From Schizosaccharomyces osmophilus (lineage: Eukaryota): DNA of 64,000 bases. Shown here in pieces: positions 41,676 to 45,957 of the stretch. How positions within the stretch are numbered: position 1 is the first letter of the stretch; each line of letters opens with the position of its first letter. Location: NCBI RefSeq assembly GCF_027921745.1, contig NC_079238.1, positions 5,084,001 to 5,148,000 on the forward strand, written 5' to 3'. The notes under the pieces are model-generated. The model made no database searches. It had not been told where the DNA came from and saw only the letters and a list, made by a program, of their open reading frames with translations. The translations under genes and the position numbers were made by a program.

Positions 41676-41794
41676 AGCCTACAGCATCCCGGATTCCCAT
41701 GTTGTCTCCAACCATAGTACTAACGAGACCCTCAGACGCTTAACTGCAGTGATCGGACGGGAACTGGTGTTTTCGCCTAGGTATGGCCGTAGAC
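41676..41794 (-). rRNA. 5S rRNA gene, copy 1 (119 nt)
   Basis: Reverse complement GTCTACGGCCATACCTAGGCGAAAACACCAGTTCCCGTCCGATCACTGCAGTTAAGCG...GCTGTAGGCT followed by a T-run. Confidence 0.97.
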
Positions 41795-42507
41795 ATTTGT
41801 TATGGTCTGTAAAGATATTTATTACAATAATGATCCAGTCTTTTATTTGGCTTGATGAACTACAAGATCCAATTCAACTCAGTTCTATCTGTGTGTTTTG
41901 TCACGTTGAATGGAGAATGCTTTCATACTGTAAGGATAATATTTGAAAACACACTGTTTTTACTCTTTTCTATTGATTCACATTGTGGTCGCAGGAGCAT
42001 CAGATTGAGTGTATGAGTTTATGGGTTGAAAATGTTACTTAATATAAATTGGGTTCTACTTGAAATTTTTCATGGTCCGTCGACTTGACTCCCAAAGTAA
42101 ACGATAATTCAATGTTTTAAACTACATCAATTGAACCTTCCAACCTGATGATTTGTGCTTTCTATGCTGTGAATGAATTTTACCTCTGGCGGTAATCACT
42201 TTCGTTCTTACAATTAATGAAAGACACGACACAGTTTTGAGTAAAAAACTAGTTAATTACGATGATATTTTCCTCAGAATAATTAAATAATCATTAAAAA
42301 GGGTGTCTATTCATGAAGAAAATGAACGATGCCGTGAAACGAATAAGAAAATTCATGAGAGAGAAATGAGAAAAGCAATCAAAGTCCGCTGGTTTCATCT
42401 GATCTAAGTTTTTGTGGAAGCGAATGCAGGAACTTGGTAGACTGCAATTGACATCGATGTTTCCAAAGAAGGCGCGAAATATAAAGAATGAAAGCACTCG
42501 GTAAAAC

Positions 42508-43637
42508 TTAAACTTCGGCGCTTTGCGCAGCAAGAGGCTGAAGTTCGATTCCTTCGTTCTGAGATACTTGCTCTCCTCGATTGGTTCCTTTTTAATAGGT
42601 TAATAACGCCTCGTGATAGGAAGCATTTACCAAGTGTACATACCGAACATATGATCTAACACATTTCCTATGCCGTTTCCTAACACATTTATGCCGTTTC
42701 CCATATCGACGACTACTAATCTAAGTCGTTCACGCGCATTTGCATTCACTAGAAGAGTTAGAATATTTCGCGGGTGTATGACATACTCGTCAAATAAAGA
42801 AACAAGACAAAGTTAACAAAACAAACAGCATAGAAAAAATTGTTGTTTATCTTTTCGAATCCTGTGAACTTTTTTGCAGCATAATACGCAGTGAAACCGA
42901 GGACATCGAGAAAACACACACATAATACTGAGATACACATAGCTGACAATACGTTTTTGGTTAATCTTCCAGCTTGCGTGAGCCCTTTTTTGGCCTGCTT
43001 GAACCATTCTTTAGGCATTTGAGTCATTGCTAATAGTTAGTAAGTCGCTCAAAGTGAAAGATATCGTTGTTGAATTACCAAGCAGAAACAATACAAAGGC
43101 TGCAACAAAGCCACCAAAAAGCCCCCAAAGGGTTTTTGCATTCACAGAAGCCTTGAAACCAAAAAATAACACAAGAAGAATAGCATAGGCTACAATATAC
43201 CCAATAGTTATAGGCAACAAGATGCCTGCTAAGACTTTCTGGCAAAGCACCACATCCCAACCAGAATTATTAGCGGAATTCTGAGCGGATCCATCAGCCA
43301 TTTCTAAATCGATAAACTTGTTTGAAGCTAATGGATGTATTAGTAACTGTTCTTTCGTTTTGTGAAAGGATAGAGGTTTTCGCCCTGTTTGTTGACACTT
43401 ATCAACAAGGTTATTAGTTTCAAACCCAACAAATAAATAAACAAGCATGATTCTTCCATCACGAGCCGTTCCAACAAGAACACAAAGAATTAACCTCTCT
43501 ATTTTAATTCAACAAATCTTACCTGTATACGGAGGAGGCGTACCATCAAAAGGAGACGACTGACTAACTACCTTTTCATCATTGAGCGTTTTGGAAGAGT
43601 CATCAGAATCTGAAATAGGAGTATATTTGTTTTTCAT
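42508..43637 (-). CDS. wtf: wtf-family meiotic driver (poison/antidote), 5 exons: 43637-43523, 43327-43079, 43029-42787, 42748-42644, 42587-42508; long isoform 263 aa
   Basis: All four GT..AG introns are phase 1 and splice to a stop-free 792-nt CDS; MKNKYTP start, PPPY at the end of exon 1, FIDLEM at the start of exon 2, TM exons, GNGI/GNV repeats in exon 4, AEV* end; 5S-flanked. Confidence 0.88.
42656..42701 (-). repeat. Imperfect 21/24-bp tandem repeat in wtf exon 4 (GNGINVL-GNGIGNVL)
   Basis: ctaacacattt(cct)atgccgtttc occurs twice. Confidence 0.8.
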
Positions 43638-44670
43638 ATTTACAATGGCAATTATAGCCCAAAATAACACCGATAGTTACACTCTAAATGAAATCAACTA
43701 GAATCACCAAGAAAAGTCCGTAAGAACTGGCTCCACTTCTCAAGGATCTGTCAAAAAAAAGGAATTGGACCTTGCTTCAACAATTAAAAGCAAAAGCAAC
43801 TTCTTTTAAAACCAACGATGCGAGTTTGAAAAAATCTTGGTATTGGCTTTTCGCATGTCTCAATTCATAAAGCTGCGACATTATGTCACTGACTGGTCAC
43901 GGTCCTCGTTACGATTATTCAACGTTGGTTTTTTATTGCGATTTTTCTAAATAGTATAATCCAAAAGAATCGTCGTTTATTACAAAAAGTAAACAAAGGA
44001 ACTTTGAGCAAAACAACCATGCTGTTTGCTTAAATTATAAATAGCAGGATTAGAAATGCATATCTTTGTATTGGAAGGTTCTATGACTTTGGCTTAACAG
44101 GTTTCACAGTTTTCATTTCGTTAATTAGATCCTAAACTTGAGAATAATTGGTCCACTGGTATAAAAGCAGAATCCCAATTGAATGAAAATATGATTATTT
44201 ACACACTCAGTCATTTAACAAGAAAGCGAAAGGGAAAGGTTCGACGCTTGTTTTATAATGTTCCCAAGACCCATCAGAAGTGTCATACAATACTTGTGTA
44301 GCTGTAAATATGGAAAATCATAATGAACGACATTTATAGTGACTAGTACATCTTTATTTAATTTATTTTAATCACACGATAGAAACAAACAAAAGCGATT
44401 TCGGACAGGTCATTCATTGTAAATATATATAGAATAGCGTACGCTTACTAGCTATCGGTATGTGTGTCAGAGAGGGTGGATGATAGCTTCACCTCTGCAA
44501 AACTCTAGTCATTGCCATTGTGGACTCGATTCATGTAGTTTGGAGTTGTTACAAAGTAGATTTTATTAAGCTTGTTAGTCGGATCAGATGTGTGCTACTG
44601 TTTTGAAAGTTCTGACATGAATTTGGGTGTTTACTGCCTGTTTGAGTAGGTTTTGAAGGAATTTCAGAAA

Positions 44671-45508
44671 ATGACTGAAAAAAACAAATACAAAAAGCTA
44701 AAAGATGCTGATTCAGCTGACGTTCCTCGCTTGGGCACTCTTGCAACGTTTGACGGTGAACTGCCACGGTACAATGAAATCTTGAATTCTCATCTAGACG
44801 ACTTGGAAAAAGGTCATGCACCTCCGTACTCAGAAAACAGACATCAAGAAGCGTCTACCAACATGGCAGGAGGAAATATATTCTCTATTTCTTTACGAAA
44901 TGTCTTGACGGCATTATTGTGGTTAATTTTCTGGCCGGCAAAAATTGTGAGAATCCCCGAAGCACAACGCAGACAGGAAAATGAATCTGCTCGGCTTAGT
45001 TTTTGCTTTATTCTTTCGGTCATAGTAAACTTTTGGTTTTCTTACAAATACCTTGTCCCCTTTATAAAGGAATCGATGAAAGAATCTGTAGGGGTAAACT
45101 TTCAAGCTACTGTAGCAGCTGTTCTTGTCGTCATGGCTTTCTACATGTTTCTATATGTTTGTTCATGTAAGTGAAATGGTGGAATTTTAATTTGATATGT
45201 TTACTAATGGGGTACTTATAGTGTTGCTGGATTTTATTGCTTTAGTGCTTTCTGGGATTGCTTGGATTGTTTCTTGGATTATTGCTGCTCTTGGTTTCAG
45301 GATGTCGTCGGAAAGAAACGACTCGACGGATGGTAACTGGATCCCACTAAGCACTATGCCGGCAGAGTCTGAAAATCAATCCAACGATCGTAGTGATAAT
45401 ACTGCCGAACAACCGTCCTCTGAACATACCTCTGAACATACTGAGCAATCTCCAGGGTTGCGCCAGGAACCGGGTCAGTCTAGGGATGTTGAAAGCGGTG
45501 GGAATTGA
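44671..45508 (+). CDS. wag: wtf-associated (wag-type) membrane protein, 2 exons: 44671-45166, 45222-45508 (260 aa)
   Basis: GTAAGT..CTAAT..TAG intron joins two ORFs in frame; LPRY, DLEKGHAPPY, about 4 TM segments, acidic Ser-rich tail. Name is inferred from its position between wtf and 5S, not from an alignment. Confidence 0.7.
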
Positions 45509-45838
45509 TTTATACGGAAAGTAAAGCATTGTTTTTTATAATGTCCGGTCTTTTCGATTTTTCTCCAGCATGCTTTTGCTTATGTTTATGTTTATGTTTC
45601 ATCTTTGCATTTTGTATTTTATATTTATTCGTCAAGCACTTTTTTAATAATGATCCTTATAGAATCTTTTATTTTCTAACTAATAAGGAATATAATTAAT
45701 TATTGAATCATGGATGACCATTGCTTCCTTGCAATCACTAGTATCACTAAGTCAAACGTCTACGTCGATCACAACGAAGCCATGTGCTTCAATAAAAAGA
45801 GCAACAAAGAGAAGCAAAAAGTAAGGTAAAAAGCGAAA

Positions 45839-45957
45839 AGCCTACAGCATCCCGGATTCCCATGTTGTCTCCAACCATAGTACTAACGAGACCCTCAGAC
45901 GCTTAACTGCAGTGATCGGACGGGAACTGGTGTTTTCGCCTAGGTATGGCCGTAGAC
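45839..45957 (-). rRNA. 5S rRNA gene, copy 2 (119 nt)
   Basis: Appears identical to copy 1 by eye, same orientation, unrelated flanks. Confidence 0.97.

Follow-up and report, generated by a model that had tools for sequence, protein, structure and literature searches.

The 64,000-nucleotide stretch of Schizosaccharomyces osmophilus DNA analysed here (contig NC_079238.1, positions 5,084,001 to 5,148,000; hereafter the window) carries, between its positions 41676 and 45957, a compact cassette in which two 5S rRNA genes enclose a wtf gene and a wag gene (Table 1). The 5S genes are co-oriented and identical at 119/119 bases, and wag lies upstream of wtf and divergent from it. Because the identity of the flanks stops after 3 bases on the left and 1 on the right, the repeat unit of the cassette ends is the 5S gene body itself. 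The cassette period is 4163 bp, with 4044 bp of interior, and the spacers contain no further ATG-initiated open reading frame of more than 53 aa; therefore the cassette encodes no transposase. An earlier reading of the sequence alone (the first-pass annotation) had described identical 119-nt 5S genes around exactly one divergent wtf/wag pair in about 4.2 kb, free of transposase, and in all of this it was accurate. There is nothing unusual in the perfect match of the two 5S genes. For S. osmophilus, about 107 dispersed 5S genes are listed (PMC9562144, supplement 1j), and a third 5S gene in the window (55925-56043, minus strand, Rfam) differs from the cassette pair at 3 bases, so that the identity is expected from family-wide homogenisation.

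Table 1. Features of the 5S-wtf-wag-5S cassette (window positions).
Feature	Position	Strand	Remarks
5S rRNA gene A	41676..41794	-	Rfam RF00001, 107 bits; 3' of wtf; T-run beyond its 3' end
Relic R2	41993..42321	+	likely decayed long terminal repeat (LTR); spacer 3' of wtf; orientation opposite to that of wtf
wtf	42508..43637	-	1130 nt; 263 aa; five exons: 43637-43523, 43327-43079, 43029-42787, 42748-42644, 42587-42508
Two 7-aa GNG-type repeats	42663..42704	-	exon 4 of wtf; 42 bp, as also listed for wtf20 (PMC9562144, supplement 1r)
In-frame ATG (Met48)	43299..43301	-	near exon 2 start; predicted poison start, 216-aa product
Weak FLEX-like site GTCAACAAACA	43386..43396	-	intron 1 of wtf; one mismatch; candidate poison promoter element
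PY motif PPPY	43527..43538	-	aa 34-37, antidote-specific exon 1; from the gene model
Relic R1	43884..44226	-	likely decayed LTR; wtf-wag intergenic, co-oriented with wtf; TGACA end ∼250 bp before the ATG of wtf
wag	44671..45508	+	exons 44671-45166, 45222-45508; 260 aa; LPRY (PY motif) at aa 31; about three hydrophobic segments
5S rRNA gene B	45839..45957	-	Rfam RF00001, 107 bits; upstream of the wag-wtf pair

Splicing of the wtf model (exons of 115, 249, 243, 105 and 80 nt; every intron GT..AG with a branch site) yields a product identical at 263/263 residues to P0001 (WBW70850.1), annotated as a 'wtf meiotic driver' of S. osmophilus; the spliced wag product is likewise identical to P0017, i.e. 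SOMG_02330. That the two genes are a wtf and a wag-type gene had been proposed in the first-pass annotation. Membership of the wtf family was evident from protein homology, the intact five-exon frame, the PY motif in the tail of exon 1, the transmembrane segments (hydropathy analysis gave four hydrophobic segments for the long, antidote-type product) and the 7-aa repeat in exon 4. When exon 2 was used as a query, 14 of 241 candidate proteins matched, all of them from S. osmophilus or S. octosporus. P0001 is 84% identical to S. osmophilus wtf19, the closest paralog that has been tested, 69% to S. osmophilus wtf41 and 55-57% to S. octosporus wtf25. Contigs of run X4 skip introns 1 and 3 exactly, break at the intron-2 donor and at the wag acceptor and, in two cases, end in poly(T) at 42268. 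This run is labelled 'DNA?' yet its contigs skip introns, and at 90% likeness they possibly stem from paralogs, so that they support the gene model at family level; being contigs rather than reads, they cannot show transcript starts or levels.

The locus and its architecture are already in print, named in the tables of two papers (PMC9562144; PMC10085805), and 5S-wag-wtf-5S units are a known arrangement (PMC9562144), as the first-pass annotation had stated. In table 1c of De Carvalho et al. (2022; PMC9562144), the row for wtf20 gives 1130 nt, wag11 as partner, 5S genes on both sides, a predicted DRIVER and no LTR. The window gene agrees with wtf20 in length, wag partner, 5S layout, FLEX-like site and repeat length (supplements 1c and 1r), and the osmo_wtf20 row of the published alignment, over the part that could be read, agrees with it as well. 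Jia et al. (2023; PMC10085805) list SOMG_02329 as 'wtf19, syntenic with wtf20 in CBS 15792', with SOMG_02330 as its wag. By our count, wag and both 5S genes occur in 17 of the 42 rows of table 1c, and the locus is thus one of about 17 complete 5S-wag-wtf-5S units in S. osmophilus, catalogued as wtf20/wag11. That sister units share both genes and spacers was apparent from the wag clusters, the variant contigs and the rows of the published table. As given, the finding is a named locus plus a published model and adds little.

Our reading, which we hold with high confidence, is that the cassette is one of these about 17 units, that its intact wtf gene is a predicted single-gene poison-antidote spore killer, and that the unit probably evolves by recombination with its sister units rather than through a mobility enzyme of its own. 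In the proposed mechanism, a long transcript would give rise to the 263-aa antidote, whose PY motif would recruit ligases of the Rsp5/Pub1 type and thereby direct it to the endosome and vacuole, while a short meiotic transcript starting in intron 1 would encode the 216-aa poison beginning at Met48; spores without the wtf gene would then die. This scheme follows published work, in which the PY motif of the antidote binds ligases of the Rsp5/NEDD4 family and antidote with bound poison is routed from the trans-Golgi to the endosome (PMC10721834). In studied relatives, the poison is the short product made from a promoter in intron 1. As expected of a driver, the gene has a second in-frame ATG close to where exon 2 begins (Met48, at 43301). 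In favour of activity, the frame is intact, and the protein is related to S. osmophilus wtf41 (69%), whose poison is toxic, and to S. octosporus wtf25 (55%), a proven driver (PMC9562144).

A number of observations weigh against this reading. The intron 1 site is the same in supplement 1c of PMC9562144, with p=2.5e-5 against a confident cut-off of 3e-6, and the window wtf thus lacks a confident FLEX in intron 1, as do all intact S. osmophilus wtf genes listed there; FLEX-like sites that differ at two positions turn up roughly once in every kb (59 in the window) and were disregarded. The poison of wtf19 was non-toxic in Saccharomyces cerevisiae, and of seven selected S. octosporus genes just three showed clear drive (PMC9562144). 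The paralog P0002 is 94.5% identical across the poison part and could suppress the poison. The tie to the Wtf proteins of S. pombe was also weak in our own searches: P0001 did not match the Pfam WTF family, PF03303 was matched weakly by three of 16 aligned relatives of P0001 (best E 0.0024), and a profile search with 7996 scored candidates found 75 proteins, none from S. pombe; the tie rests on the PSI-BLAST search in PMC9562144. Finally, drive, toxicity and the short transcript are predictions for the window copy. Active drive by this copy is a tentative proposition to which we give somewhat less than even chances.

We regard as evenly balanced the possibility that the gene is intact but serves only as an antidote (a suppressor), or is a neutralised former driver, so that little or no poison is made or any poison is covered by near-identical paralogs. 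The weakness of the FLEX site, the harmlessness of the wtf19 poison and the closeness of P0002 over the poison part all speak for it. The copy is, moreover, found in both strains compared and may therefore be fixed, and its syntenic counterpart in S. octosporus is a pseudogene with an annotated 145-aa product that lacks the PY motif. However, the window gene retains the second ATG, which is missing from published antidote-only genes, and short transcripts are still made from 14 S. octosporus genes that have no confident FLEX (PMC9562144). In addition, the repeat in exon 4, a known specificity region, differs from that of P0002. With its frame intact, the gene could serve to test for drive in S. 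osmophilus, for which the parts of PMC9562144 and PMC10085805 consulted here report no cross.

How units of this kind move has been modelled before: PMC9562144 proposes both ectopic gene conversion and circle integration at 5S genes. Recombination between 5S genes, which the first-pass annotation offered as a route of mobility, is therefore a published model, but recent movement of the window copy was not borne out, since the site is filled in both strains and syntenic in S. octosporus. In PMC10085805, the window wtf is among the 41 of 42 wtf genes common to the two strains compared, and PMC9562144 records complete synteny with S. octosporus wtf24 (a pseudogene) and wag5 and scores the gene as not lineage-specific. 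An empty allele with a single 5S gene, which would mark such movement, was not found in the published tables: they show the site filled in the two strains and in S. octosporus, and S. cryophilus is rearranged there, so that no comparison with it is possible. Because syntenic counterparts exist in both strains and in S. octosporus, the evidence points to a copy that has been resident for long and has not recently moved.

The wtf gene is, at the same time, a mosaic. Its exon 2 is 99-100% identical to those of P0002, P0003 and P0015; with P0007 and P0016, by contrast, it shares 58% identity in exon 2 and 96% in exon 3. Going by this pattern, recent change at the locus is overwriting. The unit would already have been in place when S. 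octosporus diverged, to be overwritten piecewise by gene conversion later on. The genes and the spacers of the cassette are alike covered by many variant contigs of X1 and X2, and just past 5S-B this cover drops to a single 7-kb contig. The pile-up marks a dispersed repeat, without giving its copy number; X1 and X2 may be the source of the window itself.

It is very unlikely, in our judgement, that the cassette is currently mobile, i.e. that it arrived recently or is excised as a 4163-bp circle. Its perfect direct repeats would suit such a view, as would the sister cassette wtf31, which one strain carries and another lacks, probably by way of its 5S flanks (PMC10085805), and the lineage-specific units at single-5S sites in other species (PMC9562144). 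Against this stand the syntenic, not lineage-specific wtf and wag pair of S. octosporus, the presence of the copy in both strains and the homogenisation that would by itself make the 5S genes alike. No excision joint was seen among the 15 of 27 joints shown, although contigs cannot bridge a 119-nt repeat and are thus uninformative on excision or circles; joints to 55895 and 55925 were taken to be paralog artefacts. With direct 5S repeats at its ends, the unit could in principle be lost or copied.

Two papers call the wag family, to which wag11 (PMC9562144, supplement 1c) belongs, uncharacterised. Our search with the window Wag protein gave 30 matches among 142 candidates (15 in S. osmophilus, nine in S. 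octosporus and six in S. cryophilus), and a profile built from 27 of these (three short ones were excluded) retrieved, from 1.84 billion proteins, only nine representatives, all from the same three Schizosaccharomyces species. Across 33 Wag sequences (29 of the 30 matches and four of seven new ones, with fragments lacking the N-terminus excluded), an L-P-x-Y motif was invariant (33/33) and among just 15 columns conserved at ≥ 95%. A second P-x-Y was found in 32/33 sequences and was shortly followed by a Met in 30/32; these counts come from related sequences and are not independent, and further Met columns are conserved too. We predict from this motif that Wag is a substrate or adaptor of Rsp5/Pub1. 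Our literature search found no paper that links wag to a PY motif, and the invariant motif would provide the first testable mechanism for the family. Wag could not be assigned as a homolog of Wtf or of DUF999, with hhalign probabilities of 0.7% and 0.5% and hidden Markov model scores at shuffle level. The predicted fold was poor (predicted local distance difference test, pLDDT, 48.9; predicted template modelling score, pTM, 0.22), and a search of the ESM Atlas with Wag gave no usable match. In S. cryophilus, at least 10 wag homologs compare with five listed wtf genes, so that wag is apparently multi-copy there without wtf.

Outside the cassette, the window contains a 354-bp multi-copy element (51738-52091) with the ends TGTCA...TGACA that have been described for Tosmo LTRs, and a more decayed copy of it at 61800-62093 (nhmmer, E 1.3e-9). 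By their sequence, both are presumably solo LTRs; both are missing from an older published LTR list. When the whole window was searched by nhmmer with the 51738-52091 element, the third and fourth matches, directly after these two copies, both fell within the cassette (44110-43956, minus strand, E 0.019; 42082-42185, plus strand, E 0.061). Pairwise alignment extended the similarity to nearly the full element for R1 (43910-44226; score 298, null 145±16) as well as for R2 (41993-42321; score 231, null 138±17), and in both cases 0/300 dinucleotide shuffles scored as high. The two scores also exceeded those of all 36 real non-coding tiles (maximum 164), and the R1 and R2 spacers resemble each other in inverted register (1/150 shuffles). 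With a two-LTR profile, R2 gave E=0.0013 and R1 E=0.55, i.e. the similarity over most of the LTR length is weak for R1 in this test. One LTR end was recognisable in R1 and none in R2, no 5-bp target duplication was seen, and a search with the LTR core written as an exact degenerate pattern had zero matches. In run X5, one contig links the end of one copy of the LTR-like element with the beginning of a second, an arrangement that tandem LTRs or a two-LTR circle would give; the run was too patchy for use.

On these alignments, R1 and R2 are likely to be real LTR relics, and the claim of the first-pass annotation that the cassette contains no LTR is probably wrong. Chance similarity of AT-rich DNA, or a 354-bp element that is another kind of repeat, would be the alternative, and one that we find rather unlikely. 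Identity is about 60% with many gaps, R1 stays within the block-shuffle range in the two-LTR profile (4.1 bits versus a maximum of 5.1), neither spacer is matched significantly by the second LTR-like copy alone (54 and 65 of 300 shuffles), and the match came to light post hoc. Yet R1 aligns almost end to end, at the right length and with a TGACA end, both spacers surpass 300/300 shuffles and 36/36 tiles, their mutual similarity has the inverted register expected of them, and the ends of the 354-bp element are of the Tosmo type.

It would be a further and more doubtful step, which we put forward as speculation, to regard the unit as a fossil LTR-flanked wtf gene that was later carried between 5S genes. 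R1 would then supply or shape the upstream promoter of wtf (that it acts as the wtf promoter is a guess), the inverted R2 would overlap the wtf 3' end, and Wag would be a PY-motif membrane protein on the Rsp5/Pub1 sorting route (suppressor, helper or second selfish gene) that spreads without wtf in S. cryophilus. Because the spacers are common to sister units, the description 'with Tf' would on this account fit the octosporus-group species too, hidden by decay. If true, LTR relics flanking wtf inside a 5S unit would join the modes of spread seen in S. pombe (LTR) and in the octosporus group (5S). A search of the literature, narrow in scope so that novelty is unproven, found no paper on degenerate LTRs at wtf genes of the octosporus group. 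Two modest leads go beyond the published record and are worth following, namely the relics of LTRs and the PY motif of Wag.

The surroundings of the cassette provided several further observations. Between a tRNA gene and 5S-A lies a multi-copy DUF999 gene (40346-41203, plus strand; Pfam E 3.6e-7). It resembles Wag in having PY motifs and a DLEKG stretch, and paralog contigs link its 3' part to a 5S end. In the ESM Atlas, this neighbour had a 0.77 match to a WTF cluster, which is a lead only; DUF999 in S. osmophilus is mentioned in PMC13123837. The ids of the genes def1 (35618-38338) and tre1 are adjacent in S. pombe, S. japonicus and S. cryophilus, but the two genes are 4.7 Mb apart in S. osmophilus; in S. 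cryophilus, the wag homolog SPOG_01294 lies between them. As inferred from these gene ids, the cassette probably lies at the breakpoint of an old rearrangement.

The interval from cmt1 to the malic enzyme gene (50575-59470) holds, besides the intact third 5S gene, two decayed 5S copies at ∼52868-52971 and ∼53484-53596, with scores of 128 and 108 where shuffled sequence reached 40 at most; all three are on the minus strand. According to the ortholog tables, this interval is the site of the proven S. octosporus driver wtf25, which is listed without 5S flanks. An arrival of wtf25 at a 5S site as well would fit these observations; a tblastn search for a wtf remnant near the decayed pair (52.9-53.6 kb) found none. 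Directly downstream of the third 5S gene is a gene for a predicted membrane protein of 447 aa (53957-55300, minus strand), with no Pfam match and an ortholog listed only in S. cryophilus, and a run of ∼47 A residues in non-coding DNA (57040-57086) is possibly a retro-inserted tail or a simple repeat.

Compared with known systems, the closest counterpart is the published wtf20/wag11 (PMC9562144), i.e. SOMG_02329/02330 (PMC10085805), with the same 1130 nt, protein, wag, 5S genes on both sides and FLEX-like site, and with the same neighbours def1, ferric reductase and cmt1; the published table has no LTR at the locus, whereas the present analysis found two decayed LTR-like stretches. The S. osmophilus wtf31 cassette has the same 5S-wag-wtf-5S layout but, unlike the window copy, shows presence-absence between two strains. 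S. octosporus wtf25 (SOCG_04480) shares the five-exon family structure, the PY motif, the second ATG, 55-57% identity and the chromosomal neighbourhood; it differs in its perfect FLEX and abundant short transcript, in having neither a wag nor annotated 5S flanks, and in being a proven driver where the window copy is a predicted one. The S. pombe wtf drivers (wtf4, cw9, cw27), which are associated with Tf solo LTRs, resemble the window gene in poison-antidote design, PY-motif antidote tail, 7-aa repeat and possibly an upstream LTR, but their identity to it is about 12-14%, and association with 5S or wag does not occur in S. pombe.

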